Source: a virus
Lineage: Duplodnaviria; Caudoviricetes
Strand: one strand, 5' to 3'
Virus record (IMG/VR): IMGVR_UViG_3300027771_000073
Coordinates: 1 to 28,747 of that record
DNA: 28,747 nucleotides
The notes beneath the pieces were generated by a model, which ran no database searches, had not been told where the DNA came from, and saw only the letters and a list, made by a program, of their open reading frames with translations. How positions within the stretch are numbered: position 1 is the first letter of the stretch; the number at the start of each line of letters is the position of its first letter. Positions 3 through 26,353 of the stretch are shown here, one piece after another. The translations under genes were made by a program, and so were the position numbers.

Positions 3-3000
3 TATACTAAGTTGTGGGACAAGGCTTACAATAAAGATTATGTGGATGCTTTAGGTGACAACTATGTTAAAACATATACTAAAGATTATCAAGCTGACTA
101 TACAAAAGTTTGGTCTACAATTTATACTAAAACCTATTCAAAAGATTATAGTGCTGACTATACAACTGTGTATACAAGGATATGGCAGAGTGCAGACTTT
201 AGTAGGATATGGGACGGCCCAGTAGATTATGTTAAAGCATATACAGGTGCTGCAACATGGACAGGAACTCAGAATTATATTGTCAACTATGTTAAGACAT
301 ATACAGGTGTGCTTGATTATGTTAAATCATATCGTACAGATGTTACTTATATAGGTGAAGTAAACTATAGTAAGATTTATTTTAAAGCTTATGTAGGTAC
401 ATTATCTTTCACAGGTATTCATAATTTTGCAGGAGACGTAGCTTATAATAAACTTTATACAGGTGTTGCTTCTAACTACAGTATAGCTGGATATTTAAAA
501 TTATATGAAAAAGATTATTTAAAAAATTATACGGCAGTGTATACTAAGATCTGGGAAAAGGATTATGTTAAAGATTATAGTACTGACTATTTAAAAACTT
601 ATACAAAAATTTGGTCTAAGGATTATGTAAAAGATTATCTAAAAGATTATACTAAAATTTATACTAAAATATGGAATAAAGATTATATAAAAGAGTATAC
701 AAAAGTCTGGCAAAAAGCCTATACTAAGATATGGAATAAAGATTATCTTAAAATATATGTTGAATCATATGCAAAGGCTTATGTAAAAGATTACGATAAA
801 GAATATACAAAAATATGGGTAGGTCCTACTTACTATGGTGGCTATGAGTCTGGATCAGATGAAACTAACTATACTAAAATCTATACTAAAATTTGGTCTA
901 AAGATTATGTAAAAGATTACGTACATTCATTTGCAAAAGATTATTCAAAAGACTATAATAAATTATATGCTAAAGATTATGTAGATGTATATGAAGGCTC
1001 TTTTGATGCCAACTATACAAAGGTATGGGCTAAGATATGGGTTAAAGATTATGATGCCATCTATCTTAAAAATTATGTAAAGGCTTATGATGCCGCCTAT
1101 ACTAAGATATGGGTTAAGACTTATACTAAGGCTTACGATAAAATATATGAAGGTTCATTTGATGCAGACTATACAAAAGTATATGTTAAGACATATACTA
1201 AAGACTACTCTAAAGACTATGGTAAAGTTTATACTAAGACGTGGGCCCAACATTGGCATAAAGATTATGTTAAGACTTATACAAAGATCTGGACTAAAGA
1301 TTATACAAAGATTTATGCTAAAGTATGGGTTGGTGAATACAATAAAGATTATATAAAAGACTACACTAAAATTTATACTAAACTCTGGTCTAAAAATTAT
1401 GTAAAAGCATATGAAGGTTCTTTTGATGGATCGTTTGGTGCCAACTATACTAAGATCTGGGTTGGACCAACATACTATGGTGGCTATGAGTCAGGATCAG
1501 ATGAGACTAACTATACTAAAATCTATGCTAAGGTATGGGTTGGTTCTTATGTAGGTGTCTACAATAAAGATTACGTTAAAGATTATGATGCAGTTTATAC
1601 TAAGATCTGGTCTAAAAATTATGTTAAAACATATGAAGGTTCATTTGATGCTAACTACACTAAGGTATGGCAAAAAGATTATTCCACTGACTATCTTAAA
1701 AACTATGTTAAAGCATACCAGTTATCTTGGACTAAAACTTACACCACAATTTATACTAAAATATGGGATAAAACATATACAAAGATCTGGGTTGGACCAA
1801 CTTACTATGGTGGCTATGAGTCTGGATCAGATGAAACTAACTATACTAAAATCTATACTAAGGCGTGGGATAAAGAATATACTAAGGTATGGTCTAAAGA
1901 CTACCATGTAGATTGGGCTAAAGATTATGGAAAAATATGGACTAAAGTATATTCAAAAGATTACCTTAAAGATTATACTAAAATTTGGTCTAAGGTATGG
2001 GTTGGAGAGTATACTAAGCTTTGGGAAAAAGATTACCTTAAAGATTATACTACAGTATATACTAAGATATGGAATAAAGATTATGTAAAAAGTTATACAA
2101 AAGTATGGTCAAAAGATTATGCTGTTGATTATACTAAAATTTATGCTAAAGTATGGGTAGGAGAATATACTAAAGGTTGGGTTAAAGGTTACGTTAAAAC
2201 TTATACTAAAATTTATACTAAACATTATGATGCAGAGTGGACAAAAAATTGGGTAAAAACATATACCACAATTTACACTAAAGACTATACAACAATTTAT
2301 CTTAAAAATTATGTAAAGGCTTATGATGCCAACTATACTAAGATCTGGACTAAGAACTATCTTAAAAACTATGTTAAAGATTATGAGACAGACTATGTTA
2401 AAACATATACAAAGATCTGGTCTAAAAATTATGTTAAAACATACACTACAGACTATACTAAGATCTGGACTAAAACATATACAAAAGCATATGAAAGAAT
2501 ATGGGCTGTATGGATTGCGTATTATTCTGGGGTAACAGCTTACACATCACCAAAAGCATACACTGCATCTTACACAGGCATATTAAGTTACACAGGTAAC
2601 TATGCATCAGGTGGCTTCTCAAAAGATTATGTTAAAACTTATACAACAATATATGTTAAAACATATTCAAAAGATTACAATAAAGATTATGCATCAGACT
2701 TCTCACGTAACTGGCACAAACTTTGGCAAAAAGATTATGGTACTGAGTACGGTGCTGATTATGCTAAAGATTGGGTTGGACCTACTTACTATGGTGGTTT
2801 TGCTAGTGGTAGTGATACATCTGTTTATAATAAAGTATATGGTAAAGTGTGGACAAGAGATTGGGCTAAGAGTTATGATGCATCTTACACCGCAGTATAT
2901 ACTGGTGCATTTACAAAAACATACACTAAAGATTATAATAAAGACTATACTAAAATTTGGGAGAAGACATATACTAAAGTTTACGAAGGTGGGTCTGCTG

Positions 3001-3500
3001 GTACAAGAACATTCTCAGCTGAAGTATCATTCTTAAATCCTGCTACTGCAGTATCATATGTAAGTGTAAAAAATTATACTACCGGTCTACTGTTCTTTGC
3101 ATTAACAAATTACCTTAAAACTTATACAAAGGCATACACTAAAGTGTGGACTAAGATATGGTCAAAAGATTATAATAAAGACTATACTAAAATATATGCT
3201 GATGGTGATGATAACTATACTAAGATCTGGACTAAAACTTATACAAAAGATTACAGCACAGATTATACTACAGTATACAATAAAGATTATGTAAAAACTT
3301 ATGAGGGTGAAGCTATATTTAATTACAGAGGTACATTTGATGGTCTAATAAATTACAATAAAATATATACTAAGGTTTATAATTTAGATACTAACTTCCT
3401 TCAAACATATAGTCCAACATATACAGGGGATCAATATTTTGAAATAGCTTACACAGGTGAAAGAACATCACATTCAACTTATGTTGGACCTACAAACTTT
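3..3500 (+). repeat. Degenerate 12-nt (4-codon) coding repeat array, [YWF]-x-K-x
   Basis: Aromatic residue every fourth position (YTKI WSKD YVKD...), interrupted by 5-7 residue units and loop motifs at 816-869, 1458-1511, 1788-1841 and variant 2772-2825. Confidence 0.95.
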
Positions 3501-4697
3501 GTTGGATCACATAGTGGTGCATTAGCAAATACTAAACCTCAATTGTTTATTAAGAAAGATGATAACTGGGAACAAGCTAAGAAGCTATGGGTAAGAGAAG
3601 ATGATGTATGGAAAGAAGTACCTTACTTCCATAGTAAAGAAGGTGGTAATTGGAAACTTGTAAACATAGGATATAAACATACAGATGTATATCTTGATTC
3701 CCATGTAGGTAGTGCTCAAGCTAATACAGCTAGTGAATATTATTTAAGAGGTGAAAATGATACAACTGCTACTCCAGATACGTTAGGAGAGTTCTCATCT
3801 AAAGGTTCAGCAACTATTACAGGACACGAAGGTGCTAAGACATCTTACTTTGTAAATGAATTCAACCTAAAAGAATTCTTAGATCATAAAGGTAGAGACA
3901 GTGGAACTTATCCAACAATGACTACTATCCACGTTGGTCAACAAAATCAATTTGATAATTATTTTGTAATGGGATCTAACAATGCAGCAAGACCTGCTAT
4001 TGATCTAACTGGATTTGCATCTATATCAATTAATCAAACAGACGGTGGTAGTGCTCAATCATTCCAACACTTAGTAAGAATTGTTACATATAACAATGGT
4101 TACATTGTAGGTGCTGGTGGAGCTGGTGGAGCAGCTGCAGATAATACAGCAGGTGCTGATGGAGCAAATGGTGGTTCAGCTATTAAGACTGATGCTCATG
4201 TTAAATTATTTGTAGAAAATTATGGTACTATAGGTGGTGGAGCTGGCGGAGGTGGTGCTGGTGGCTTGACAATGTATAGTGATCCGTTAACTGGTGACAA
4301 ATCATCTGAGTTTACTAACCAATCAGGTTCTGGTGGCGGTGGTGGTGCTGGCTTCCCAGGTGGTGCAGCAGGTGCAACAGCAAGTGCTGTAACAGCAGCC
4401 TCAACAGCAGGCCAGTTATTAGTAGGTGGTACAGGAGCTAAACCAGATATATCTACAACACATAACTCAAGAGTATCAGGAGGTACAGGTGGTGTGCTAG
4501 GTGGTATAGGTTATGGTGCTAATATGGATAAAACTGTGACAGGCGTCTCTACAAGAACAATTTGGGCTATGAGTGGTGATGGTGGTATACCAGGTAAAGC
4601 TGTTGATGGATTTGATGCAGCTAGAGTTCACTTTACAGGACCAGGTGGATCTAATAGAGGTAACATTGCTGGTGATGAAACATTCAAATTGGCATAA
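3..4697 (+). CDS. Giant aromatic-x-Lys-x tetrapeptide-repeat fibre-like protein with C-terminal glycine-rich adhesin-like domain (5' partial)
   Basis: The frame is open from the window edge (TAT ACT AAG TTG TGG = YTKLW), so TTG at 12 is not a real start. Repeats run to about 3500. They are followed by a W-containing linker (IKKDDNWEQAKKLWVREDDVWKEV...KEGGNWKLV) and Gly-rich motifs (NNGYIVGAGGAGG...ENYGTIGGGAGGGGAGG) resembling T-even gp38-type adhesins. Confidence 0.8.
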   Translation, partial: YTKLWDKAYNKDYVDALGDNYVKTYTKDYQADYTKVWSTIYTKTYSKDYSADYTTVYTRIWQSADFSRIWDGPVDYVKAYTGAATWTGTQNYIVNYVKTYTGVLDYVKSYRTDVTYIGEVNYSKIYFKAYVGTLSFTGIHNFAGDVAYNKLYTGVASNYSIAGYLKLYEKDYLKNYTAVYTKIWEKDYVKDYSTDYLKTYTKIWSKDYVKDYLKDYTKIYTKIWNKDYIKEYTKVWQKAYTKIWNKDYLKIYVESYAKAYVKDYDKEYTKIWVGPTYYGGYESGSDETNYTKIYTKIWSKDYVKDYVHSFAKDYSKDYNKLYAKDYVDVYEGSFDANYTKVWAKIWVKDYDAIYLKNYVKAYDAAYTKIWVKTYTKAYDKIYEGSFDADYTKVYVKTYTKDYSKDYGKVYTKTWAQHWHKDYVKTYTKIWTKDYTKIYAKVWVGEYNKDYIKDYTKIYTKLWSKNYVKAYEGSFDGSFGANYTKIWVGPTYYGGYESGSDETNYTKIYAKVWVGSYVGVYNKDYVKDYDAVYTKIWSKNYVKTYEGSFDANYTKVWQKDYSTDYLKNYVKAYQLSWTKTYTTIYTKIWDKTYTKIWVGPTYYGGYESGSDETNYTKIYTKAWDKEYTKVWSKDYHVDWAKDYGKIWTKVYSKDYLKDYTKIWSKVWVGEYTKLWEKDYLKDYTTVYTKIWNKDYVKSYTKVWSKDYAVDYTKIYAKVWVGEYTKGWVKGYVKTYTKIYTKHYDAEWTKNWVKTYTTIYTKDYTTIYLKNYVKAYDANYTKIWTKNYLKNYVKDYETDYVKTYTKIWSKNYVKTYTTDYTKIWTKTYTKAYERIWAVWIAYYSGVTAYTSPKAYTASYTGILSYTGNYASGGFSKDYVKTYTTIYVKTYSKDYNKDYASDFSRNWHKLWQKDYGTEYGADYAKDWVGPTYYGGFASGSDTSVYNKVYGKVWTRDWAKSYDASYTAVYTGAFTKTYTKDYNKDYTKIWEKTYTKVYEGGSAGTRTFSAEVSFLNPATAVSYVSVKNYTTGLLFFALTNYLKTYTKAYTKVWTKIWSKDYNKDYTKIYADGDDNYTKIWTKTYTKDYSTDYTTVYNKDYVKTYEGEAIFNYRGTFDGLINYNKIYTKVYNLDTNFLQTYSPTYTGDQYFEIAYTGERTSHSTYVGPTNFVGSHSGALANTKPQLFIKKDDNWEQAKKLWVREDDVWKEVPYFHSKEGGNWKLVNIGYKHTDVYLDSHVGSAQANTASEYYLRGENDTTATPDTLGEFSSKGSATITGHEGAKTSYFVNEFNLKEFLDHKGRDSGTYPTMTTIHVGQQNQFDNYFVMGSNNAARPAIDLTGFASISINQTDGGSAQSFQHLVRIVTYNNGYIVGAGGAGGAAADNTAGADGANGGSAIKTDAHVKLFVENYGTIGGGAGGGGAGGLTMYSDPLTGDKSSEFTNQSGSGGGGGAGFPGGAAGATASAVTAASTAGQLLVGGTGAKPDISTTHNSRVSGGTGGVLGGIGYGANMDKTVTGVSTRTIWAMSGDGGIPGKAVDGFDAARVHFTGPGGSNRGNIAGDETFKLA

Positions 4698-4733: not shown

Positions 4734-7700
4734 ATGGCCAACCCACTAAAGATAAAATATTCAGGTAGTACATTCAACGGTCTTCAAACTATGACCAATG
4801 AAAATATGGATCATACTGTCCATCAAATTCTTACTGAGTTTGTGGCTAATACTGGTCCTGGAATTATTTCTACCTCAGGTGATTATACATCTATAGGTTC
4901 TTTTGTTGATACTAGAAGAACAGAAGGTGTAGGTCAAACAACACCAGGTGGTGCTACATCAACTGTCAGTACAACAACAGTACGCCAATGGCAAGGTAAT
5001 AGCAACAATGATGAGTCTGGAATGGTCAGACCATTAGAGTACGTTTCAAGTACATATCCAATTCAAGAACAAACAGACACAACATTAAATGCTTCAATAA
5101 TAAACAGAGCATTAACTAATTTAGTTTCTAATGGTGTTGGGTCTTATGTTATGAATCCTTCTCAACCAAATAGTCAATACACTTCTATACTTACTTTATC
5201 AGATACAGTAACAGGTAATGGTACAGCTTCTAATACAACAACACAAATTTGGAGAAGAACAACTGGTGCCAGCACAACAGCACTATATCCTCTTAAACTT
5301 GGTAGTAGTAGTGGTTCACTTAATGAAATGTCTAATACTAATCTAGCAGCATTTATTAGTAGGTTTAGAAATCAAATGATGACTACTGGTATTGGTAAGT
5401 ATGTATTACAGGAGAATGCTCCAGCATCAGGAACATGGTTAAGACAGGGAGTTGCTTTTACAGATAGAAGACATATATTAGGTTCTGGTAAAACATATAC
5501 AAAAGCTTATACTAAATCTTATGGTGCAGACTATTCAGCTGACTATACAAAAACTTATACCTCTGTATATGTTAAAGAGTATGCTGGTGAATATTCTAAG
5601 ACTTATACAAAACTATATGGTAACTCATATGAAAAAGTTTACGTAGGTGGTTATGCTACAGACTATAGTAAGACATATACTAAAACATATACAAAAACAT
5701 ATGATGGAGAGTATACTAAAACATATACTAAGTTGTGGGTGGGTGAAGTAAATTATACAAAAGATTATGTTAAAGATTACAACAAGGCTTATGAAAAAAT
5801 TTATACTAAAACCTTTACTGGTGACTATACAAAAATTTGGACTAAACTTTATGATAAGATATATGTTAAACAATGGACAAAGAATTATACAAAAGCATAT
5901 ACATCTGCTTACTTAAAAGAGTATATAAAGTTATGGTCAAAAAACTATGTAGCTTCAGAAACATTTGATCACAATTGGGAAAAAATATACACTCATGCAT
6001 GGACAAAGTTATATGAAAAAACATATGTTGGGGACACAGTGTATGGAGGTTCATCAGCTAAAAGTTATTTAACTAACTACGATAGAATATATGAAGGTAC
6101 GTATACAGGAGCAAAAGTATATACAGGTGCATACACTAGCGTTGTTAATTATGAACAGCATTATGCAGGAGACGTTGCATATGAAGGTACCTTTGATGTT
6201 AACTATGCAAAGAATTGGTCTAAGACATACTCAGTTGATTATTTAAAAGGTTATGGTAAAGCATGGTCTAAAGATTATATTGGTAATTACATTCACACAT
6301 TTGTTGGATCATATTCAAAAGATTACTCTGTTGAATATACACATAACTGGACAAAAGAATATAGCAAGATATATGAAGGACATTTTGCTGGTGGTGCATA
6401 TGAAAACCAATGGGAAAAAGGCTACGTTAAATTATATACAAAATTGTGGACTAAAACCTATACAGGTAACTATACAAAGAATTGGGTCAAGTCATATATT
6501 ACACAATACCAAAAAGTTTGGGAAACATCTTATGCTCAAGAATGGCATAAGCTCTATACTAAGATATGGACAAAAGATTATGTTAAGAAGTATCAAAATA
6601 ATTGGTTTAAAAACTATGTAAAAAATTATGAAACAGATTATGTTAAAGCCTATACAAAAATTTATACTAAGTTATGGGATAAGGATTATGTTAAAGCCTA
6701 TACTAAGATCTGGGAAAAAGATTATACTAAGATATATTCAAAAGTATGGTTAGGGTTATATACTAAAGGTTGGGTTAAAGGATATACAAAGGACTATGTA
6801 AAAGCATACACTAAAGTTTGGTCAGCTGATTATAGTACTGACTACAATAAAGACTATATAAAAAATTATGTTAAAACATATACTACAACTTATGAGGGTA
6901 CATTCACAACTGGCTATACTAAAATTTATGCAAAGGTATGGTTGGGTGAGTATACTAAAGGTTGGGTTAAAGGTTATGTAAAAGCTTATGATGCTGCATA
7001 CGAAGGTTCGTTTGATGCTAACTATACTAAGGTATGGCAAAAAGATTATGATGCAGTGTATACTAAGATCTGGACTAAGACATATACTAAAGCATATGAT
7101 AAAGTATACGAAGGTTCGTTTGATGCTAACTATACAAAGATCTGGAATAAAGATTACACTAAGATATATGAAGGTTCTTTTGATGCTAATTATACTAAAG
7201 TATGGGATAAAGAATACACTAAGATTTGGGTAGGTCCAACTTACTATGGTGGCTATGAGTCTGGATCAGATGAGACTAACTACACTAAAATTTATGTTGG
7301 TGCCTGGACTAAAATATATGCTAAAGTATGGGTAGGGGAATATACTAAAGTATGGACTAAGGCCTATGACAAAGTATATGCAAAGGTTTGGGTAGGTGAG
7401 TATACTAAATTATATGAAAAAGATTATCTAAAAGACTACACTAAAATTTATACAAAGATCTGGACTAAAGATTATACAAAGATTTATGCTAAAGTATGGG
7501 TAGGTGAGTATACAAAGATCTGGAATAAGTTATACAACAAAGATTATGTTGATGTATATGAGGGGTCATTTGATGCTAACTATACTAAGATCTGGACTAA
7601 AAATTATGTAGGGGTTTATACTAAAGTATGGAATAAAGATTATATAAAAAATTATGTTAAGACATATACTAAAGTTTGGACTAAGTTATGGGAAACAGAT

Positions 7701-10700
7701 TACCTTAAAAATTATCAAAAGCTATACAATAAAAATTACGTAGATGTATATGAGGGATCGTTTGATGCAGACTATACTAAGATATGGACTAAGACATATA
7801 CTACTGACTATCTAAAAAATTATGTTAAATCTTATGATGCTGATTATAGTAAAGACTATCTTAAAACCTATACAAAGATCTGGCAAAAAGATTATGTTAA
7901 AAGATATAGAAAAAATTACCTCAAAACATATTCCAAAGATTATGAAACAACATATGAGAAAGCATACCAACAATCATTTTCTGCCAGATACTTAAAACAT
8001 TATGAAGGCGACTATACTAAGATATGGGAAAAGAATTATGTTAAAACATATGTAAAAGCCTGGGAAGCTGAGTATGCTAAAGAGTGGCATAGATTGTGGA
8101 CTAAAGATTATGTTAAAGATTATTCAGCTGACTATACTAAAAATTGGGTTAAGACTTATACAAAAATATATGAAGGATCTTTTGATGCTGCGTATACAAA
8201 AGTATGGTCTAAACTTTGGGATAAAGATTATGTCAAAACATACACCACTATCTATACCAAACTATGGGACAAGGATTATGTAAAGACTTATACAAAGTTA
8301 TGGTTGAAAGATTATGATAAAGTGTATACTAAGATCTGGTCAAAAGACTATACTAAAATCTATGCTAAAGTTTGGCTAGGGGAATATACTAAAGGTTGGG
8401 TCAAAGGTTATGTTAAAGCCTATGATGCTGTGTATGAGGGATCGTTTGATGCTAACTATACAAAGGTATGGGCTAAAGATTACAGTACAGACTATCTCAA
8501 AAATTATGTTAAAACATATAGTAAGGCCTATGATAAAGTATACGAAGGATCGTTTGATGCTAACTATACTAAAGTATGGGCTAAAGCTTATGATGCTGTA
8601 TACGAAGGATCGTTTGATGCTAACTATACTAAAGTGTGGGCTAAAGATTATGGTAAAGACTATACTAAAATATATGAGGGATCATTTGATGCTAACTATA
8701 CTAAGATCTGGGTTGGACCAACTTACTATGGTGGCTATGAGTCTGGATCAGATGAGACTAACTATACTAAAATCTATGCTAAAGTCTGGCTAGGTGAGTA
8801 TACTAAAGTTTGGGCTAAGGTATGGACTAAAGATTATACAAAGATATACTCTAAAGTTTGGGTAGGAGAGTATACTAAAATTTGGCAAAAAGATTATACT
8901 AAAATTTATGCAAAAGTATGGGTAGGTGAGTATACAAAAGTTTGGACTAAAGATTATCTTAAAGATTATGTTAAGACTTATACAAAGATCTGGACTAAAG
9001 ACTATACTAAAATATATGCAAAGGTTTGGGTTGGAGAGTATACTAAGATTTGGAATAAGCTATACAATAAAGATTATGTAGATGTATATGAAGGTTCGTT
9101 TGATGCTAACTATACTAAGGTATGGGTCAAAGATTACTCCACAGACTATACTAAAGCATGGCAAAAAGCTTATTCAAAAGACTATCTTAAAAACTATGTA
9201 AAGAGTTATGATGCAGAGTATACTAAGATCTGGGAAAAAAATTATGTAAAGAGTTATGGTGCTGACTATACTAAAATTTATAATAAGGTATGGGTAGGAG
9301 AGTATACAAAGATCTGGGAAAAAGATTATGTAAAAATCTATACAAAGTTATGGTCTAAAAATTATCTTAAAGATTATGAGGCAGCATATCAAGACTCGTG
9401 GACTGCAAATTATGTAAAAGCATATGAAAAGCTATACACAAAAGTATGGACTAAAGCATATGAGGGATCATTTGATGCTAACTATACTAAGATATGGGTT
9501 AAGACTTATACAACAGATTATAATAAAGACTATCTTAAAAATTATGTCAAGGCCTATACAACAACATATGATAAAGATTATGTTAAAGCCTATACTAAGA
9601 TCTGGTCAAAAGACTATACTAAAATATATGCTAAAGTCTGGCTAGGGGAATATACTAAAGGTTGGGTTAAAGGTTATGTTAAAGATTATGTGAAAACATA
9701 TACAACAACTTATGAAGGTACATTTGATACAGCATATGTTAAAACCTATACTAAGGTATGGAATAAAGATTATGTTAAAAATTACGTAAAGACATACAGT
9801 AAAGATTATGATGCTGTATATGAAGGATCCTTTGATGCAACATATGTTAAAACATATTCCAAAGATTACACTACAACCTACGATAAAGATTATCTTAAAA
9901 TTTATGTTAACACATGGGCTCAACATTGGCATAAAGATTATGTTAAAACTTATACTAAAATTTGGACTAAAGACTATACAAAGATTTATGCTAAAGTATG
10001 GGTGGGTGTATATGAAAAAGATTATGTAAAAGACTACACTAAAATTTATACAAAACTTTGGTCTAAAAATTATGTTAAATCATATGAGGGATCTTTTGAT
10101 GGTTCATTTGATGCTAACTATACTAAGATATGGGTAGGCCCAACTTACTATGGTGGCTATGAGTCTGGAGATGATGAAACTAACTATACTAAAATTTATG
10201 CTAAGGTATGGGTTGGTTCTTATGTAGGTGTGTACAATAAAGATTACGTTAAAGATTATGATGCAGTCTATACCAAAATTTGGTCCAAGACTTATGTTAA
10301 AGCCTATGAAGGTAGCTTTGATGCTAACTATACTAAAGTATGGCAAAAGGATTATTCAAAAGACTATCTTAAAAACTATGTTAAAGCATATCAATTATCT
10401 TGGACTAAAGATTATACAAAGATTTATGCTAAAGTATGGGATAAAGAATACACTAAGATTTGGGTAGGTCCAACATACTATGGTGGCTATGAGTCAGGAT
10501 CAGATGAGACTAACTATACTAAAATTTATACTAAAGTATGGGGTAAAGATTATACAAAGATATGGTCTAAAGACTACCATGTTGATTGGACTAAAAATTA
10601 TGAAAAAGTATGGACTAAAATTTATACTAAGATCTGGACTAAAGACTATAATAAAGATTATGCAAAGGTTTGGGTAGGTGAGTATACAAAGATCTGGGTT

Positions 10701-12326
10701 AAAGATTACAACAAAGATTATCTTAAAAATTATGTAAAGACATATACAACAGACTACAATAAAGATTATGTTAAAACATACACTGGTGTGTATACTAAAA
10801 TATGGGAAAAGAATTACCAGAAATTATATAATAAAGCTTATGCTGATGCGTACGAAGGATCGTTTGATGCCAACTATACTAAGATCTGGACTAAAGATTA
10901 TTCTACAGATTATCTTAAAAACTATGTTAAGACATATACTAAGATATGGAATAAAGATTATATAAAAAATTATGTTAAGACCTATACTAAAGTTTGGAAT
11001 AAAGATTATGATGCTGTGTATGCTAAAGTATGGGTGGGTGAATATGAAAAAGATTATACAACAATCTATACGAAGTTATGGTTAAAAGATTATGTTAAAA
11101 TTTGGCATGCTAATTGGACTCATGAGTGGGTAACTAACTATGATAAAGATTATGTAAAAACATATACAACTGTATACTCAACTCTATGGGAAAAAAATTA
11201 TGATAAGGATTGGCATACTGACTGGTTTAGAGAATGGGAAAAATTCTATACTAAGAATTGGGATAAAGATTATGTAACTGTCTACACTGGTACATTTGAT
11301 ACAGACTATTCAGTTAATTATGGAAGAGTGTGGACTAAAGCATATGTAGCTCACTACGAAGGTTTATGGCAACAAGAGTTTACTAAGCAATGGACAAAAG
11401 ACTATGAGGCTTCTTATACAAAACTTTGGACTAAAGAATGGTTGGGTGATTATAATAAAGAGTTTATCTCAACATGGACAAAAGACTATCTTGTAGAATA
11501 TCAAAAAACTTATACTGCCGACTATACTAAAACATATTCAAAATCCTACACTAAAGTATGGACAGGTTCATATTCTGGTCCTGTAAGATATACAAAACTG
11601 TGGTCAGGTGATACAGAATTTGTAGGTACAAATTGGGCACTTGCAACATTTGTTGGAGCTTACACTACTGAGTATACAACAGGATGGACTAAAGTTTATG
11701 AGGGTGGCTACACTAGTGCAACATCATACATTAAAGAATATGAAAAATCATACGATAGAGATTATACAAAAGCATACACTGGAACATATACAGGTGATAG
11801 AGCTTATACAAAAGTATGGCAAGCATCTTATGAAAGAACATATGATAGAGACTACACAAAGACATATAGTACAGACTACGAAGCAAACTATACAAAAGAT
11901 TATTCAAAAGATTACACTGCTGTATACACAGGAACCTTTGATCGTAACTATACTAAAAATTATGACAAGACATATACAAAGATATGGTCTAAAATATATG
12001 TAGGAGAAGTGAACTTTAGTGTTGACTACAACAAGGTATATGTGGGACAATACAATAAGAATTATACAAAAGATTATTCTAAAACATATAGTAAGATTTG
12101 GGAAGCAAATTATATTAAAGAGTATAGTGGTGACTGGGCTAAAGATTATATCAAACTATATGGTGGATCATACACTAAGGCATATACGGCTGTTTATACA
12201 AAGATATATAATAAGGTATGGTCTAAAGTTTGGAACAAAGATTATAACAAAGCATACGTCGGTACTAACATAGATGATGAAACTGAAGTGATAAGCACAG
12301 TGAGTTTATGGGTTAGGACCGCTTAA
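4734..12326 (+). CDS. Giant 2530-aa tetrapeptide-repeat virion fibre-like protein (three-module anchor domain plus ~2250-aa repeat insertion)
   Basis: ATG with SD and a late-promoter-like element. The 254-aa non-repeat N-terminus contains three related modules (PLK..LQ/NEM..G.G....S.....DT/DR). Repeats span 5496-12266, then a short tail ETEVISTVSLWVRTA. Confidence 0.85.
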   Translation: MANPLKIKYSGSTFNGLQTMTNENMDHTVHQILTEFVANTGPGIISTSGDYTSIGSFVDTRRTEGVGQTTPGGATSTVSTTTVRQWQGNSNNDESGMVRPLEYVSSTYPIQEQTDTTLNASIINRALTNLVSNGVGSYVMNPSQPNSQYTSILTLSDTVTGNGTASNTTTQIWRRTTGASTTALYPLKLGSSSGSLNEMSNTNLAAFISRFRNQMMTTGIGKYVLQENAPASGTWLRQGVAFTDRRHILGSGKTYTKAYTKSYGADYSADYTKTYTSVYVKEYAGEYSKTYTKLYGNSYEKVYVGGYATDYSKTYTKTYTKTYDGEYTKTYTKLWVGEVNYTKDYVKDYNKAYEKIYTKTFTGDYTKIWTKLYDKIYVKQWTKNYTKAYTSAYLKEYIKLWSKNYVASETFDHNWEKIYTHAWTKLYEKTYVGDTVYGGSSAKSYLTNYDRIYEGTYTGAKVYTGAYTSVVNYEQHYAGDVAYEGTFDVNYAKNWSKTYSVDYLKGYGKAWSKDYIGNYIHTFVGSYSKDYSVEYTHNWTKEYSKIYEGHFAGGAYENQWEKGYVKLYTKLWTKTYTGNYTKNWVKSYITQYQKVWETSYAQEWHKLYTKIWTKDYVKKYQNNWFKNYVKNYETDYVKAYTKIYTKLWDKDYVKAYTKIWEKDYTKIYSKVWLGLYTKGWVKGYTKDYVKAYTKVWSADYSTDYNKDYIKNYVKTYTTTYEGTFTTGYTKIYAKVWLGEYTKGWVKGYVKAYDAAYEGSFDANYTKVWQKDYDAVYTKIWTKTYTKAYDKVYEGSFDANYTKIWNKDYTKIYEGSFDANYTKVWDKEYTKIWVGPTYYGGYESGSDETNYTKIYVGAWTKIYAKVWVGEYTKVWTKAYDKVYAKVWVGEYTKLYEKDYLKDYTKIYTKIWTKDYTKIYAKVWVGEYTKIWNKLYNKDYVDVYEGSFDANYTKIWTKNYVGVYTKVWNKDYIKNYVKTYTKVWTKLWETDYLKNYQKLYNKNYVDVYEGSFDADYTKIWTKTYTTDYLKNYVKSYDADYSKDYLKTYTKIWQKDYVKRYRKNYLKTYSKDYETTYEKAYQQSFSARYLKHYEGDYTKIWEKNYVKTYVKAWEAEYAKEWHRLWTKDYVKDYSADYTKNWVKTYTKIYEGSFDAAYTKVWSKLWDKDYVKTYTTIYTKLWDKDYVKTYTKLWLKDYDKVYTKIWSKDYTKIYAKVWLGEYTKGWVKGYVKAYDAVYEGSFDANYTKVWAKDYSTDYLKNYVKTYSKAYDKVYEGSFDANYTKVWAKAYDAVYEGSFDANYTKVWAKDYGKDYTKIYEGSFDANYTKIWVGPTYYGGYESGSDETNYTKIYAKVWLGEYTKVWAKVWTKDYTKIYSKVWVGEYTKIWQKDYTKIYAKVWVGEYTKVWTKDYLKDYVKTYTKIWTKDYTKIYAKVWVGEYTKIWNKLYNKDYVDVYEGSFDANYTKVWVKDYSTDYTKAWQKAYSKDYLKNYVKSYDAEYTKIWEKNYVKSYGADYTKIYNKVWVGEYTKIWEKDYVKIYTKLWSKNYLKDYEAAYQDSWTANYVKAYEKLYTKVWTKAYEGSFDANYTKIWVKTYTTDYNKDYLKNYVKAYTTTYDKDYVKAYTKIWSKDYTKIYAKVWLGEYTKGWVKGYVKDYVKTYTTTYEGTFDTAYVKTYTKVWNKDYVKNYVKTYSKDYDAVYEGSFDATYVKTYSKDYTTTYDKDYLKIYVNTWAQHWHKDYVKTYTKIWTKDYTKIYAKVWVGVYEKDYVKDYTKIYTKLWSKNYVKSYEGSFDGSFDANYTKIWVGPTYYGGYESGDDETNYTKIYAKVWVGSYVGVYNKDYVKDYDAVYTKIWSKTYVKAYEGSFDANYTKVWQKDYSKDYLKNYVKAYQLSWTKDYTKIYAKVWDKEYTKIWVGPTYYGGYESGSDETNYTKIYTKVWGKDYTKIWSKDYHVDWTKNYEKVWTKIYTKIWTKDYNKDYAKVWVGEYTKIWVKDYNKDYLKNYVKTYTTDYNKDYVKTYTGVYTKIWEKNYQKLYNKAYADAYEGSFDANYTKIWTKDYSTDYLKNYVKTYTKIWNKDYIKNYVKTYTKVWNKDYDAVYAKVWVGEYEKDYTTIYTKLWLKDYVKIWHANWTHEWVTNYDKDYVKTYTTVYSTLWEKNYDKDWHTDWFREWEKFYTKNWDKDYVTVYTGTFDTDYSVNYGRVWTKAYVAHYEGLWQQEFTKQWTKDYEASYTKLWTKEWLGDYNKEFISTWTKDYLVEYQKTYTADYTKTYSKSYTKVWTGSYSGPVRYTKLWSGDTEFVGTNWALATFVGAYTTEYTTGWTKVYEGGYTSATSYIKEYEKSYDRDYTKAYTGTYTGDRAYTKVWQASYERTYDRDYTKTYSTDYEANYTKDYSKDYTAVYTGTFDRNYTKNYDKTYTKIWSKIYVGEVNFSVDYNKVYVGQYNKNYTKDYSKTYSKIWEANYIKEYSGDWAKDYIKLYGGSYTKAYTAVYTKIYNKVWSKVWNKDYNKAYVGTNIDDETEVISTVSLWVRTA
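5496..12266 (+). repeat. Degenerate 12-nt coding repeat array with four copies of a 54-nt loop motif
   Basis: [YWF]-x-K-x units; WVGPTYYGGYESG(S/D)DETN at 7227-7280, 8709-8762, 10131-10184 and 10461-10514. Confidence 0.95.
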
Positions 12327-12346
12327 CAATAAGAGGACTTTATAAT

Positions 12347-13288
12347 ATGAATAATAAAGAGCAAGGAAAATTGTTTGATTATTATGCTGTTGAAGAACTT
12401 AGAAATACCTATTTTTTTATGGATTGGAAAAATAATACTGTTAATCCATTATACCCAGCTTTGTCCGAAATCATAAAGCCCAACGTAAAAATGACACCAC
12501 AAGAGCATAAAGAGAATGGAAATATTGATGATAAATATATTACTGGAGCCAGTAAAATGACACCACAAGAGCATAAAGAGAATGGAGATTTTGATGACGC
12601 ATCAGTAACTGAGCATGCTTCAACTGAAGCAGAGCAAGCTAATAGAACAATAGATGCCAGAGAAGAAAAATCAAAAGACCGTTTAAATATTAACAGACCA
12701 CCACCCCAGACAACATCTTGGGAGAGAGAGAATAATATTATGGAAGAAGAAAAAACCAAGGTTGTAGCTCGTGCTGATGATGAGAAGCAACCGGAGAAAA
12801 AACAAGAACAAAAACAGGAACCGAAGTTTCCGTTCAATGATGCAGAGCCAATCTTTGCTTACTACGGTAATGATAAAAAATCTCTTATGCATTTCATTCT
12901 AAGACATCCAGACGGCCCACAAGGTCAACCTGGACCTACAGACGCACACCAAATTCATAATACCAAAGAACATCAAGACGCTTGGTATTGGGTACATAAG
13001 CTCGTAGGTCAAGAAGCTATCAATAGAAATACTAAAAAAGAAATTGATCGTCTTGATAAGATGAGAAAAAAAGAAGAAGTAGGTGATAAGGATCGTCAGC
13101 ATAAAATGGATCAAGAGAAGTTGTTCCAAGCTAAGATAGATGCTTTTGAAATGGATGTGATTCGTAATACAACTAATAGAGATATGAAATCTAAAATTAG
13201 AAGATCAAAAAGTATTATGGAACTGACCGCTTACGTAGGCGCAATTATAGCATTGGAGAGTATGAATGGAAAACCAGCAACAGACTAA
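12347..13288 (+). CDS. Hypothetical protein (charged, low-complexity N-terminal half; helical C-terminal domain)
   Basis: 313-aa ORF with GAGG SD upstream. A possible second start lies at ATG 12740, preceded by GGAGAGAGAG. No recognisable catalytic motif. Confidence 0.75.
   Translation: MNNKEQGKLFDYYAVEELRNTYFFMDWKNNTVNPLYPALSEIIKPNVKMTPQEHKENGNIDDKYITGASKMTPQEHKENGDFDDASVTEHASTEAEQANRTIDAREEKSKDRLNINRPPPQTTSWERENNIMEEEKTKVVARADDEKQPEKKQEQKQEPKFPFNDAEPIFAYYGNDKKSLMHFILRHPDGPQGQPGPTDAHQIHNTKEHQDAWYWVHKLVGQEAINRNTKKEIDRLDKMRKKEEVGDKDRQHKMDQEKLFQAKIDAFEMDVIRNTTNRDMKSKIRRSKSIMELTAYVGAIIALESMNGKPATD
12488..12586 (+). repeat. Exact 33-bp direct repeat (12488-12520 and 12554-12586), 66-bp period
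   Basis: AAAATGACACCACAAGAGCATAAAGAGAATGGA occurs twice in frame, encoding KMTPQEHKENG. Confidence 0.9.
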
Positions 13289-14126
13289 AGGATTTATGTT
13301 AGTTGCTTCATTTTCTAAACCTTATTATGATGCAGCTGTTATGTGTGCTGATTCAATTAAAGATTTTTATCCTGAAGCAAAGATAGCTATCTATACACAT
13401 AAAGATTGGTTCCAAGAAGAACATAGACATTTATTTGATCATGTTCATTTGGAAGTGCCAGTCCATGTCCGAGCTAAGCTCTGGGCACTAACAAAAACTC
13501 CTTATGATATAACAGCATATATTGATGCAGATATATATTGTCAGCACCAAGACGTCAGGCATATGTTTGACGAAATAGATGACGAGCATGACATGGCAAT
13601 GACATGCAATAGACCGTACAATGCAAAAGTAGTTTATATAACTCGTGATGAAGAATTAACTCATTATAAGCCAGAACATAAAGAACTTATTAAGACAGCA
13701 AAAGTTCATGAGTGGGACTTTAAAGGTCCTGAAGGTTGTTGGCGTATGAAGTGGCACTGTGGTATGTTTGTTTATAAAAAGAACAATCGTACATTTAAGA
13801 TGCTAGATATGTGGTATAAAAATTATAGGACTCAGATTGAATCTAATCCTAGAAAGAACTGGCCTTACGATTTCCCTCACACGTTATGGTATTGGGATAC
13901 ATTTGCTTTTTTTAATACTAACTACAAAACAGACTACGGTGTAAAAATAAAAGAAATTCATTCTAAGTGGAACTATATCAAAGGGTATAGACCTGAGGTT
14001 GAATTAAAAAATAACGAAGAGCCAGTATTCTGGCATTACACAATACCAAATGACTTAGTAGATAGGAGCACATACAATGACCCCGGTATACGAGATACAA
14101 TCGGAGATTTTAAAATTATTAAATGA
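13266..14126 (+). CDS. Putative GT-A fold glycosyltransferase (GT8-like / nucleotide-diphospho-sugar transferase)
   Basis: N-terminal Rossmann-like start (GFMLVAS..Y...A...ADSIK), RAKLWAL..TPYDITAYIDAD (DxD), CGMFVY, KWNY and a C-terminal HY. Confidence 0.7.
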   Translation: MENQQQTKGFMLVASFSKPYYDAAVMCADSIKDFYPEAKIAIYTHKDWFQEEHRHLFDHVHLEVPVHVRAKLWALTKTPYDITAYIDADIYCQHQDVRHMFDEIDDEHDMAMTCNRPYNAKVVYITRDEELTHYKPEHKELIKTAKVHEWDFKGPEGCWRMKWHCGMFVYKKNNRTFKMLDMWYKNYRTQIESNPRKNWPYDFPHTLWYWDTFAFFNTNYKTDYGVKIKEIHSKWNYIKGYRPEVELKNNEEPVFWHYTIPNDLVDRSTYNDPGIRDTIGDFKIIK

Positions 14127-14829: not shown

Positions 14830-15254
14830 TGCCAAACAACACAGCAGGAGTAGAGTTACCTGAATATTTTATACCTTGTCGTGGTAGTATTATGGATTAT
14901 TATAGACAAGTGGTGAACAATCGAGGTTGGAAAAACTATCTTGTCACAACATATAATGATACATATCAAGGTTATGATAATGTATTTAAATTTAGAGCTG
15001 AATTAAATGAACGTATACCTTTTGATTATGATGCTAAGTTAAGAGAGCATATAGTTAGAAAATCTAACATACGATATGTTAATCATGGCAGAGATGGTAT
15101 GATTGAAAAGTTCTTCCTCCAAGATCATCACACACTGCTTCATATCATATGTAGCAAAAGAGTTGATACGTTAACACTAATGCATAGAGATGAACAACCT
15201 GATAAACAAATAGATGAGTGGCTAACAATTAAAAGAAAATATTATTATGAATAA
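14829..15254 (+). CDS. Hypothetical protein
   Basis: 141-aa ORF coupled to the upstream gene (TAATG overlap, GGGAG SD). Confidence 0.7.
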   Translation: MPNNTAGVELPEYFIPCRGSIMDYYRQVVNNRGWKNYLVTTYNDTYQGYDNVFKFRAELNERIPFDYDAKLREHIVRKSNIRYVNHGRDGMIEKFFLQDHHTLLHIICSKRVDTLTLMHRDEQPDKQIDEWLTIKRKYYYE

Positions 15255-15957
15255 CATATTTGTTGTAAAGACAATACCAGAGAAAGCCACAGTCAAAGAA
15301 AAGTATAAAGATGCTCATGTGTGGGACATCTTTTGGCAATGTAAGAATTACTACAAGAAGCCATTTAAGTTTTATTTACTAACAAACTTTACAACTGTTA
15401 ACCATCCTGAAATTAAAATTGTTGATATATCTAAATTTAAGTATGATGGTTGGTGGAATAAAATGTTACTGTTCCATCCTGATATAGATAAAGAAGGTAC
15501 TAATCTATACTTTGATTTAGATACCACATTCCATAGAGACATATCAGATATTGATAAGTACATATCACCTGGTCTTCTAACATCTGTATTTTGTTATTGG
15601 AAGCCAATTGATTGGTTAGACCGGAGTGCTCAACCTAAAGAATTACAAGACGATCCTGATATGAAATATCCATCTATGTTTAATTCATCTGTGATGGGTT
15701 GGCAAGGCCATACATTAACAAGTATATGGGATGACTTTAAAGATGATGATCAACGATACTTGTTAGAGTATAGAGGTAATGATGATTATCTAGGACACAA
15801 ACAATTAGATAAGTTGAAAGCTCTTCCAAGAGGTATATGTTATTCACAGTACTATGGAGCAGATGTTGGTTCTGAATTCTTTCCTAGAGATAAAAAGAGC
15901 AACATTAAAAGAGATAATTATTATATAAGGTTACTGAATGGTCCAGGAAAAGATTAA
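15247..15957 (+). CDS. Putative GT-A glycosyltransferase
   Basis: GWWNKMLLF, NLYFDLD (DxD), FNSSVMGW and YRGNDDYL motifs typical of phage/bacterial nucleotide-diphospho-sugar transferases. Confidence 0.7.
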   Translation: MNNIFVVKTIPEKATVKEKYKDAHVWDIFWQCKNYYKKPFKFYLLTNFTTVNHPEIKIVDISKFKYDGWWNKMLLFHPDIDKEGTNLYFDLDTTFHRDISDIDKYISPGLLTSVFCYWKPIDWLDRSAQPKELQDDPDMKYPSMFNSSVMGWQGHTLTSIWDDFKDDDQRYLLEYRGNDDYLGHKQLDKLKALPRGICYSQYYGADVGSEFFPRDKKSNIKRDNYYIRLLNGPGKD

Positions 15958-16684
15958 CTTAATGACAATTAAGTGGGGTGATAAGTTTGCAGCTGAGTAT
16001 CCTAACCTAATTCATAGAATGGCCAAACGTCACATGCCTTGTGAGTTTAATTCATATTGTATGACTGATGATCCTACTGGTTTAGATAAAGACATTATAC
16101 CTGTTGAATGTACAGAGAAATGGTTATGGGATGATATACTATCAATGAAGCAATGGTGGTTTTGGGATGCAATTAAAATGTCTTTGTTTGCTCCTAAGTT
16201 ATGTGGTATAGAAGGTAAGATATTATTTACAGATCTAGATAACTTATTTTTAAATAGACTGGACAGAGTAATTCAAACAACCCCTCCAGCAATAATAAAA
16301 ACAGATTGGAATGCTAATTATCATTTAGGAATGCATAGTGGTAATTATTTTCTTACTATGGGATTCAATGCTAGTTTAATTTATGTGGACAACACATCAC
16401 CAGTAACAAAAGAAATATGGGATCACTTTGTAAATTATTATGACAGAGCAAAAGGTTCTTTGTATAGTAGTGATGCATATTTATGGAGATGCCATAGAGA
16501 TAAGATTAATACATATCCTGAAGGTACTGTATACTCACATAGTAGAGGTGCAAAGTATCCTGATCAACAAAAAGGAAAGTATAGATCAGATCATGAGGTC
16601 TGTGTTTTTATGGAAGACCATGAACCTGATCCTTTAGATATAAAAAAAGGTTGGGAGGCTGACTTATGCAAGTTGTATCTGTAA
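15938..16684 (+). CDS. Putative GT-A glycosyltransferase
   Basis: TIKWGDKF..EY.N, YCMTDDPTGL, IKMSLF, ILFTDLD (DxD), FNASLI. Confidence 0.7.
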   Translation: MVQEKINLMTIKWGDKFAAEYPNLIHRMAKRHMPCEFNSYCMTDDPTGLDKDIIPVECTEKWLWDDILSMKQWWFWDAIKMSLFAPKLCGIEGKILFTDLDNLFLNRLDRVIQTTPPAIIKTDWNANYHLGMHSGNYFLTMGFNASLIYVDNTSPVTKEIWDHFVNYYDRAKGSLYSSDAYLWRCHRDKINTYPEGTVYSHSRGAKYPDQQKGKYRSDHEVCVFMEDHEPDPLDIKKGWEADLCKLYL

Positions 16685-17337
16685 AGGTTGGTAAACTATA
16701 TGGTGTTGAATATGTCAACCAGTTATATAAACAACTGTTGACCTTCCATAAAGATTGTGTATACTATTGTATGACAGATGACCCAGAAGGGTTACATAAA
16801 GACATACAGATAATAAAAATTACTGATAGCTTTAAAGAACGTAAGTGGTGGAACAAGATAAAGTTATTTGAACCAGGTCTTTTTAATGAGCCTACTATCT
16901 ACTTAGATTTAGATTGTTACATACATACACCATTAGATAAGTTCCTAGAAACCTCTCATCCTGATAAACTAAACATTCTTAAAACAGCATGGTTCAGTGA
17001 TGGTATAGCAAAAAAAATACATATGTGTAATGTTAACTCATCTATAATGGTTATTAATGATCATAATTGTGAGCCTATGTGGAAAGAGTGCCATGACCAT
17101 ATAGATCGAATGTACAAGAGTTTCTATGGGTTAGATCCATGGTTGTACAGGAGACATATGAGTAGCATGCAATTCTTTCAACCTGGGTTAGCTTATTCAT
17201 TTAAACATGGTTGTATGTATCCATTAGATATAGAACAAAATAAATTAAGACAATTACCAGTATGCATATTTGATGATGCACAAAATAGAAAAGAGGTGTT
17301 AGATGGACTATGGCAAAGTTCAAAAGTTATGGGCTAA
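16666..17337 (+). CDS. Putative GT-A glycosyltransferase
   Basis: VKVGKLYGVEYVNQL, YCMTDDPEGL, WWNKIKLF, IYLDLD (DxD), NSSIMV; paralogous to the two preceding ORFs. Confidence 0.7.
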   Translation: MQVVSVKVGKLYGVEYVNQLYKQLLTFHKDCVYYCMTDDPEGLHKDIQIIKITDSFKERKWWNKIKLFEPGLFNEPTIYLDLDCYIHTPLDKFLETSHPDKLNILKTAWFSDGIAKKIHMCNVNSSIMVINDHNCEPMWKECHDHIDRMYKSFYGLDPWLYRRHMSSMQFFQPGLAYSFKHGCMYPLDIEQNKLRQLPVCIFDDAQNRKEVLDGLWQSSKVMG

Positions 17338-20938: not shown

Positions 20939-21679
20939 ATGGCAGCACCAAATAGTAAAGCAACATTCAAAGAATATATATTACGAAGATTAGGTAAGCC
21001 TGTAATAGAAATTAATATTGATGATGATCAAATGGATGATCGTATTGATGAGGCTCTAATGTTTTATCAAGATTATCACTTTGATGGAACACAAGACATG
21101 TTTTTAAAACATGAGATAACAGCTACCGATATATCTAATGAGTATATAACAATTGCTAATGACTACATAGGTATAGTTGATATATTTGATATAGGTGATT
21201 CAACAAGTACTAATAATTTATTTAATGTTAGATATCAAATAGCATTGAATGATATGTACGATCTATCAAGAATGGATCTTGTACCATACTTTATGAATAT
21301 GATGAACCTAAGACATATAGAAGAGATGCTTGTTGGTAAACAACCTATCAGATATAACAGACATGTTAATAAATTATGGATTGATATGGACTGGGGTAAA
21401 GTAACTGCAGGTCACTTTATAGTAGCTAAAGGTTATCAGAAAGTAGACCCAGATACATATACAGATGTGTATAATGATAGATGGTTACAAAGATATGCAT
21501 CAGCATTGTTTAGAATACAGTGGGGTAACAACCTAACTAAATTTATTGGTATGCAATTACCAGGTGGAGTTCAATTCAACGGAGAACAAATTCTACAACA
21601 AGGATTGGAAGAAAAAACTAAACTAGAAGAAGAAATGATTTCTAGTTACTCTCTTCCTGTTCATGACATGACTGGATAA
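20939..21679 (+). CDS. gp13: Neck protein gp13
   Basis: KEYILRRLGKPVIEINIDDDQMDDRIDEAL..YHFDG...WGNNLTKF.GMQLPGGVQFNG; synteny with gp14-gp19. Confidence 0.92.
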   Translation: MAAPNSKATFKEYILRRLGKPVIEINIDDDQMDDRIDEALMFYQDYHFDGTQDMFLKHEITATDISNEYITIANDYIGIVDIFDIGDSTSTNNLFNVRYQIALNDMYDLSRMDLVPYFMNMMNLRHIEEMLVGKQPIRYNRHVNKLWIDMDWGKVTAGHFIVAKGYQKVDPDTYTDVYNDRWLQRYASALFRIQWGNNLTKFIGMQLPGGVQFNGEQILQQGLEEKTKLEEEMISSYSLPVHDMTG

Positions 21680-21683
21680 TTAA

Positions 21684-26263: not shown

Positions 26264-26288
26264 ACTTTATTCTCGAGCCCATGGTTCT

Positions 26289-26296
26289 TATAAATA
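26289..26296 (+). promoter_or_regulatory. T4-type late promoter TATAAATA
   Basis: Exact consensus in the gp17-gp18 intergenic region; AAGGAG SD precedes ATG 26354. Confidence 0.85.
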
Positions 26297-26353
26297 AATA
26301 CAAGAAGTTCAAATAAATTTTGAAGATCAAAACATCCATAAGGAGAGAGAAAC

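Follow-up and report, generated by a model that had tools for sequence, protein, structure and literature searches.

A predicted branched tree of antiparallel beta-ribbons in a tetrapeptide-repeat protein of an uncultured T4-like phage

How would a protein fold that consists, beyond its N-terminal domain, almost entirely of tetrapeptides headed by an aromatic residue? The question is raised by an open reading frame (ORF) at positions 4734 to 12326 (+ strand) of IMG/VR virus record IMGVR_UViG_3300027771_000073, a stretch of 28,747 nucleotides (nt), here called the window, that is a T4-like myovirus fragment from an uncultured phage. The ORF translation, protein A (P0001; 2530 amino acids [aa]), comprises a base domain and what we read as a tetrapeptide tree: after the 253-aa N-terminal domain, nearly all tetrapeptides have Tyr, Trp, or Phe first. 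An initial annotation of the interval from 6531 to 11222, which is exactly aa 600 to 2163 of P0001, had proposed that units at mirror positions are matched by a complementary pairing code.

Because facing units covary and arms are equal in length between loop and junction motifs, the chain is likely a nested tree of antiparallel beta-ribbons; judged from its sequence, P0001 would probably fold as a single chain into a branched tree of two-stranded ribbons. Prediction and design of long antiparallel ribbons are difficult, as repetitive strands slip out of register and tend to aggregate. The hundreds of natural cross-strand pairs and the compensatory changes among orthologues make rules of ribbon stability and register directly testable, and the family also offers a reusable three-way junction motif.

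Facing units and predicted three-way junctions in P0001

To avoid circularity, mirror axes were fixed only by a repeated 18-residue loop (WVGPTYYGG...; four copies in P0001) and three junction motifs, namely X ([YW]A[QK][EH] followed by WH[KR]), Y (YQ[QDL]S followed by W or F), and Z ([YW]H[VAT][DN] followed by W). The motifs come in triples in which each junction unit faces the other two, and X, Y, and Z thus mark three-way junctions. The interval, which opens with the first X unit and closes with the last Z unit, has the spacing (in aa) X-228-loop-228-Y-32-X-208-loop-208-Y-172-X-68-loop-68-Y-20-loop-20-Z-172-Z-32-Z. It is not a single mirror but a nested tree with six stems (182 facing unit pairs), four tips, and three His-bearing three-way junctions.

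All elements of the tree lie on the + strand. The base domain (4734 to 5492; ~250 aa; 43% identical to relative P0087) is followed, still outside the interval, by the outgoing strand of a root stem (5493 to 6530; aa 254 to 599), in which inserts of 1 to 4 residues face inserts of the returning strand. Junction 1 begins with its X unit (YAQE, then WHK; 6531 to 6542), from which hairpin 1 (6543 to 7964) extends with a left arm (6543 to 7226; 228 aa), a tip loop (7227 to 7280), and a right arm (7281 to 7964; 228 aa) and returns to the Y unit (YQQS; 7965 to 7976). The outgoing strand of stem S1 (7977 to 8072; 32 aa; partner, 11115 to 11210) leads to junction 2, with its X unit (YAKE, then WHR; 8073 to 8084), hairpin 2 (8085 to 9386; left arm, 8085 to 8708, 208 aa; tip loop, 8709 to 8762; right arm, 8763 to 9386, 208 aa), and Y unit (YQDS; 9387 to 9398). 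Beyond the outgoing strand of stem S2 (9399 to 9914; 172 aa; partner, 10587 to 11102), junction 3 holds an X unit (WAQH, then WHK; 9915 to 9926), hairpin 3 (9927 to 10388; 68-aa arms; tip loop, 10131 to 10184), a Y unit (YQLS; 10389 to 10400), hairpin 4 (10401 to 10574; 20-aa arms; tip loop, 10461 to 10514), and a Z unit (YHVD; 10575 to 10586). The chain then returns through S2 (10587 to 11102; 172 aa), the Z unit of junction 2 (WHAN; 11103 to 11114), S1 (11115 to 11210; 32 aa), and the Z unit of junction 1 (WHTD; 11211 to 11222). The remainder (11223 to 12326) contains the returning strand of the root stem and a conserved C-terminal strand, which likely docks on the base domain. Outside the interval, aa 254 to 599 and 2164 to 2511 close the tree, with their short inserts facing each other; Gly faces Gly in 8 of 12 cases in the inner and 4 of 5 in the outer part of this root stem (read by hand). 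Junctions occupy 8% of the span and hold 47 of its 49 His residues, a figure that is partly circular, as the motif patterns contain His; the stems have none. The only four Pro residues in the 1564 aa are all in tip loops.

The specific pairings proposed in the initial annotation were counted over all 182 facing pairs of the six stems, unless stated otherwise, and they recurred throughout. YEGS faced (W/Y)(V/L)Gx in 16 of 16 cases (the strict form W(V/L)GE in 13 of 16), FDAx faced Y(A/S/N)KV in 16 of 16, and Y(A/S/N)KV faced FDAx in 16 of 17. The rarer combinations were equally regular, with YTKG opposite Y(V/A)D(V/A) (4/4), WVKG opposite YNK(D/N/A) (4/4), and YEGT opposite Y(V/T)GV (2/2). YLK(N/D) usually faced YVK(T/A) (7 of 11; background, 0.08), and Lys-less units faced YTK(I/V/L) in 16 of 16 cases (background, 0.21), with Trp next in every one. 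As had been claimed, facing units were matched and not identical (identity in only 12 of 182 pairs), and Gly faced Gly in 38 of 40 cases. With the register anchored at the loops, rule matches numbered 22 in hairpin 1 and 23 in hairpin 2, and offsets of 1 to 4 units gave 0 to 4; hairpin 3 had 6 matches, and the 20-residue hairpin 4, assigned by arm length and junction motifs and not by marker pairs, had 0. In the upstream paralogue (protein B; see below), 56 facing pairs gave Gly opposite Gly in 10 of 10 cases, the Lys-less rule in 4 of 5, and the YLK rule in 2 of 4.

Mutual information, which had been suggested as the check on the code, was likewise high. For positions 1 to 4 of the units (p1 to p4), the 182 pairs gave 0.547 bits on the diagonal p1-p3 and 1.021 bits on the diagonal p2-p4; the maxima in 2,000 rotations of one arm were 0.093 and 0.444 bits, respectively, and a parallel-orientation control gave only 0.107 and 0.376 bits. 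The signal persisted after removal of duplicates (77 distinct pairs of hairpins 1 to 3; z, 8.5 to 11.9 for p2-p4, p3-p3, and p3-p4). The absence of mutual information that the initial annotation had named as a refutation thus did not arise. A pair score trained on hairpins 1 to 3 found its best held-out stem in P0001 at aa 1544 to 1719 with aa 1960 to 2135, by which stem S2 was recovered. The same score found a 65-unit stem in the L002 orthologue, and top held-out stems also in the L001 paralogue; the held-out stems of P0001 and L002 end at recurring junction motifs.

Symmetry and compensatory change among relatives

We listed 30 repeat ORFs and fully parsed eight: A and B of L001 (a second contig, with a 100% match to P0001), A and B of L002, A of L006, L022, and L024, and B of L007. 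In L017 to L020, one junction had no recognizable X; one span each was left out, and two stray Z matches were not used. The distant relatives L009 to L012, L025, L027, L029, and L030 had no canonical junction motifs and were left out of the parsing. All 32 anchored stems of the eight parsed proteins have two arms of the same length. Hairpin 1 varied in length between relatives (176, 228, 244, or 260 aa), as did the number of tips (four in P0001 and L006, three in L022 and L002, two in L024, and one loop motif in L025). One junction of L002 is entered via its X-Y edge, a cyclic permutation that preserves the nesting. The forked tips entered in this way, at L002:9983-15094 and L002:2183-9961, have a Z-X edge reduced to a stub of 7 to 8 residues, a cassette common to both paralogues. 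A greedy 70-unit fold of the unbranched relative L025 fitted the rules in part only (Gly-Gly, 10 of 20), probably owing to a guessed arm length.

When the two arms of hairpin 1 were aligned separately with those of L006, a 4-unit indel fell at mirror index 25 to 28 in both; in hairpin 2, each arm carries a 9-unit indel. Where a unit had changed in the 128 aligned pairs, its partner tended to have changed too (odds ratio, 3.5; P 0.001), and shifts of 1 to 5 units gave no significant association. By position, compensatory change was found on the diagonals p1-p3 (odds ratio, 18.4; P 5e-5) and p2-p4 (4.4; P 3e-5), and none was found on the opposite diagonal (P 1). Covariation, compensatory change, and mirror indels thus corroborate the proposed antiparallel pairing with a register encoded in the sequence. 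Between homologous arms of hairpins 1 and 2, amino acids are kept, and synonymous sites agree at 23 of 37 and 27 of 44 (background, 0.60); amino acid conservation with codons at background indicates selection on the protein.

A recent-looking 60-nt tandem copy is present in the left arm of hairpin 2 (8538 to 8652; 96% match; 14 of 15 codons identical), and the facing right-arm copies have background identity (6 of 13 codons). An origin of the mirror indels by one recent double crossover between hairpins was considered and found no support, as codon identity is at background except in that one left-arm copy (14/15).

A structure model was computed with AlphaFold2 for P0087 from an alignment of 72 sequences. 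Residues 1 to 250 had a predicted local distance difference test score (pLDDT) of >90, and strands 234 to 258 and 479 to 511 leave the base domain unbroken. Read from strand lengths only, this model would agree with a ribbon that the two chain ends start at the base.

Several points weigh against the tree. Hairpins 1 and 2 are paralogues, and the facing pairs do not count as independent observations. The aligner put the 9-unit indel at 9 to 17 in one arm and at 20 to 28 in the other, two placements that correspond to a single mirror site only by virtue of the repetition of the module; in addition, equal indels would have to arise in two distant DNA segments. Compensatory change at p3-p3 was not significant in the 128 aligned pairs (P 0.15), and at the level of single residues the register has two readings that differ by two residues, with either p1 or p3 as the direct partner of p1. 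Structure prediction gave no confident model for the stems or junctions: single-sequence AlphaFold2 gave a pLDDT of 32 for hairpin 2 with its flanks (457 aa), and residues 252 to 375 and 410 to 486 of the P0087 model had a pLDDT of <50, with a low-confidence middle that weakly resembles solenoid folds. Lastly, the protein is known here from its sequence, and its putative role as a fiber appendage of the virion is read from gene context.

If P0001 does form a tree of ribbons, it would likely resemble an RNA cloverleaf in protein form. The idea that this RNA-like grammar of stems, tips, and cyclic X-Y-Z junctions specifies a free monomeric dendritic fiber of ~200 nm, with branch number and length tuned by evolution and parts that could be recombined as a design kit, has in our judgment slightly better than even chances. 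In such a fiber, the His-bearing X, Y, and Z units would clamp each fork, and the tips would lie 578 to 630 residues from the base (~190 to 210 nm for an extended chain with a rise of 0.33 nm per residue), presenting four copies of one loop to the host surface. The packing proposed below would provide a lone ribbon with a one-sided core and call for neither oligomer nor metal in the stems.

A possible but rather unlikely arrangement would keep the pairing but bundle the ribbons instead of leaving them free: stems would pack against one another or against other chains, four or six strands to a bundle, as in the T4 gp37 needle, and part of the code would then serve the packing. A lone two-stranded ribbon of 200 residues is unusual, the four tips are at similar distances from the base, and in P0001 the modules homologous between hairpins 1 and 2 stand equally high above junction 1 (offset +4, both arms). 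L006, however, does not keep this equal height; orthologues vary in the length of one branch independently of the others, branch number ranges from one to four, the stems are free of His, and a branched chain is geometrically incompatible with a three-fold axis. In-register bundling of the branches was rejected, as it is not kept in the orthologues.

Proposed packing chemistry and register of the pairing

On the covarying diagonal of P0001, Tyr meets Lys in 228 of 254 cases, Trp meets Ala, Thr, or Asp in 56 of 90 (Lys in 30 of 90), and Phe meets Gly in 19 of 20. The 827 pairs pooled from seven proteins behave alike (Tyr-Lys, 1026/1135; Trp-Ala/Thr/Asp, 234/426, with Lys in 162; Phe-Gly, 87/93). 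Two residues beyond this diagonal, Trp meets Trp or Phe in 0 of 176 cases. The opposite diagonal has no covariation (z ~0), and Trp meets Lys there in 66 of 90 cases, which equals the Lys background (0.73). Among the 9 relatives tabulated, position 3 is led by Gly or Arg in every one and never by Lys, and the Gly-rich relatives have no Lys. The dominant rule is size complementarity. A cross-validated conditional model of the pooled pairs, in which the strand's own sequence is already known, loses accuracy only if offsets 0 and -2 (p2/p4) or +2 and +4 (p1/p3) are dropped.

With a period of 4, positions 1 and 3 would share one face of the ribbon, and positions 2 and 4 would share the other. Each aromatic ring would rest on the position-3 residue of the facing strand, with Tyr packing over Lys, Trp over Ala, Thr, or Asp, and Phe or Tyr over Gly; large and small rings would alternate along the aromatic face, and positions 2 and 4 would be coupled to their direct and diagonal neighbors. 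A twisted two-stranded ribbon is expected to have diagonals that run in opposite directions on its two faces, and under this geometry the hydrogen-bonded face would be the aromatic one. Model beta-hairpins of twelve to sixteen residues are stabilized by Trp zippers, diagonal Trp-Lys contacts, and aromatic-over-Gly contacts. P0001 is similar to them in its cross-strand aromatic packing without a tertiary core and in placing Phe or Tyr over Gly. It differs in extending over hundreds of residues, in Trp mostly avoiding Lys, and in the direction of its covarying diagonal, the Trp-Lys contact of model hairpins being on the non-hydrogen-bonded face and on the opposite diagonal.

We regard it as improbable that stability comes from a continuous aromatic-Lys cation-pi ladder, with Gly-containing pairs as locks against mispairing in a programmable duplex, as the initial annotation had suggested. 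One part of the ladder holds, as the periodicity places aromatic residues and Lys on one face and Tyr does meet Lys. The preference of Trp for small residues and of Phe for Gly, the lack of covariation on the opposite diagonal, and the Gly-rich relatives free of Lys speak against the rest; a cation-pi contribution may exist in Tyr-Lys pairs but would not explain Trp or Phe.

The locks fared similarly. In a register score trained on other proteins, one of them a close orthologue, Gly/FD pairs carried 6.2 to 9.1 bits per pair and the remaining pairs 2.6 to 3.6 bits, a 2- to 3-fold difference that, with the pairing of Gly with Gly, is in keeping with a locking role. The non-Gly pairs alone nevertheless sufficed (cognate register, +32 to +118 bits; best shift, -1.5 to -47 bits). 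Pairing of wrong arms between hairpins 1 and 2 scored 118 to 133 bits over 24 to 25 units, versus 227 to 260 bits for the cognate arms; it scores high because the two hairpins are copies and because no module recurs more often than the Gly module. Gly modules thus mark register most strongly per pair but favor mispairing across hairpins. Since the non-Gly pairs fix the register by themselves, the register information appears to be distributed along the aperiodic sequence, and the strands would have to zip up starting at the tip loops. We propose that register could be set by zipping outward from each identical tip loop, combined with the aperiodic order of many weakly informative pairs, the Gly modules serving as the strongest single marks. 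As for the programmable duplex, facing pairs do follow rules, but the code is many-to-many and degenerate (305 distinct pair types in 827 pooled pairs). The partner strand adds ~0.5 bit at p2/p4 and 0.14 to 0.21 bit at p1/p3. "Programmable" is a hope rather than a result.

A beta-solenoid or parallel cross-beta stack, with the mirror pattern as a by-product of duplication, is very improbable. In its favor, pentapeptide-repeat solenoids align with the low-confidence region of the P0087 model (Z up to 4.4), and there is a weak Pfam Hexapep score, with 0 passing stretches. However, the signal in P0001 is antiparallel only, and the parallel control gave none; duplication yields identical copies in the same direction, not the mostly nonidentical partners in reverse order seen here, and compensatory substitutions and equal arms recur across relatives. 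DNA- or RNA-level inverted repeats or an assembly artefact as the source of the symmetry can practically be dismissed: although the sequence is highly repetitive and of low G+C content, there is no long DNA stem between facing arms (20 short, scattered inverted repeats in 5400 to 12330; 16 to 35 nt; 70 to 88%), synonymous sites are at background while amino acids are kept, and the same protein is present in a second contig and the same logic in diverged relatives.

Fold and family searches gave no name to the protein. The base domain had no match in Pfam, PHROGs, or PDB sequences, in a tblastn search of cultured phages, or in a word-index search among long proteins. Foldseek gave no match at E 0.001 against PDB and viral structures, and the best Z with VIA, 7.3, was to beta domains of the pore-forming-toxin type, a value that unrelated folds also reach. 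Sequence searches of the PDB returned 0 and 2 matches, the latter weak and unrelated. Pfam, PHROGs, NCBIfam, and PDB held no informative name (PHROG 5353, of unknown function, matches 98 residues), and the ESM Atlas returned unnamed clusters only. Within the base domain, residues ~98 to 160 resemble residues 185 to 251, an internal repeat.

Genome neighborhood and known systems

Genes for T4-like neck, sheath stabilizer, terminase, and tail sheath proteins were identified with PHROGs at 20939 to 28549 (+ strand); the terminase is 57 to 59% identical to terminases of marine Methylophilales phages and cyanobacterial phages. Upstream of the P0001 gene, at 3 to 4697 (+ strand), lies the gene of paralogue B (P0002), whose 5' part is missing in the window and which has 2554 aa in L001. 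Paralogue B has the same pair code, four tip loops, one canonical junction, and a C-terminal gp38-like Gly-rich domain (PF05268; E 6.5e-8). In L001, it is preceded by a gene with a peptidase S74 chaperone domain. The S74 chaperone gene upstream, the gp38-like domain in the paralogue, and the neck genes downstream point to a fiber appendage. The repeat tree of paralogue B closes beside its gp38-like domain, which would place this domain at the tree's base and away from the tips. Paralogue B also has short D-G-(D/S)-(D/T) turns and a noncanonical junction near its first tip loop.

The nearest known system is the needle of T4 gp37, whose six strands run antiparallel along an out-and-back chain path. 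The likeness is that of a tail-fiber chain that runs out, turns at the tip, and returns to the base; in P0001, this path is indicated by covariation and arm symmetry and not by structure. According to the gp37 report (PMC6957217), the needle domain (D10-D11) is a trimer with seven iron ions along a needle of ~130 residues, and the collar D10 (residues 811 to 881 and 1010 to 1026) is formed by both chain ends. Unlike gp37, P0001 has stems of up to 350 residues per strand that are His-free and branched and carry a tetrapeptide pair code; there are no His-x-His iron sites of the gp37 type along the shaft, the one HxH in P0001 being at junction 3.

A second likeness is to the gp38 system, as an S74-chaperone fiber gene belongs to the gene neighborhood and the upstream paralogue of P0001 ends in a gp38-like Gly-rich domain. 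The gp38 adhesin of Salmonella phage S16 (T2 type; PDB 6F45; Pfam PF05268) is described (PMC6851490) as monomeric and located at the fiber end, and its gene, too, adjoins that of an S74-chaperone fiber protein. P0001 itself has no gp38 Gly-rich polyglycine II (PGII) sandwich domain, which is present in P0002, and gp38 has neither long ribbon nor branches. Several receptor-binding ends on a branched support are also found in multi-tailspike phages such as CBA120 (work listed among the references of bioRxiv 10.1101/2024.10.28.620165). Such complexes are built of separate trimeric proteins, in contrast to the nested folding of one chain proposed here.

A cultured relative is CDS0201 of Phage C48C1 (Kyanoviridae), a hypothetical protein of 3347 aa (WJE88074.1). 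It resembles P0001 at the N-terminal domain and the C-terminal strand, carries aromatic tetrapeptide repeats as well, and is encoded in a tail-fiber gene region; it differs from P0001 in its Arg/Gly alphabet and inserted globular domains; the family likeness is one of layout. This member (L003:17787-27830) has an Arg/Ser-rich outgoing arm, a Gly-rich returning arm, and several inserted globular domains. Distinctive in P0001 are the Lys-rich alphabet, the reusable set of junction motifs, and the four-tipped tree. No description of such a protein was found in the literature searched, which covered few subscription journals and no supplements, and the accessible part of a tail-fiber atlas preprint contains the words "hairpin" and "repeat" 0 times.

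The family is large, with 211 clusters at 50% identity, and 90 of 156 family proteins match a loose pattern for both ends. For phage biology, the analysis predicts an undescribed branched single-chain appendage in this abundant uncultured T4-like group, and C48C1 is a cultured relative in which the family can be looked for. The same repeats stand behind other N termini, some of them baseplate-like, in P0016, P0020, P0021, P0033, P0041, and P0072, which suggests that the ribbon module has been fused to several carriers.

Directly after the fiber gene, at 12347 to 13288, a charged 313-aa protein is encoded that is conserved in L002 and has only a weak Pfam gp53 score, below the cutoff; it is a candidate assembly factor. 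Glycosyltransferase-like genes are located farther downstream at 13266 to 14126 (weak Pfam score) and at 15247 to 15957 and 16666 to 17337 (PHROG 1962). Within 6531 to 11222, 17 of 18 N-X-S/T sequons have the extended form D/E-X-N-X-S/T; almost all of these belong to copies of the FDAN-YT module or to tip loops, with 48 other Asn residues outside sequons, and the extended sequons may be a by-product of the repeats.

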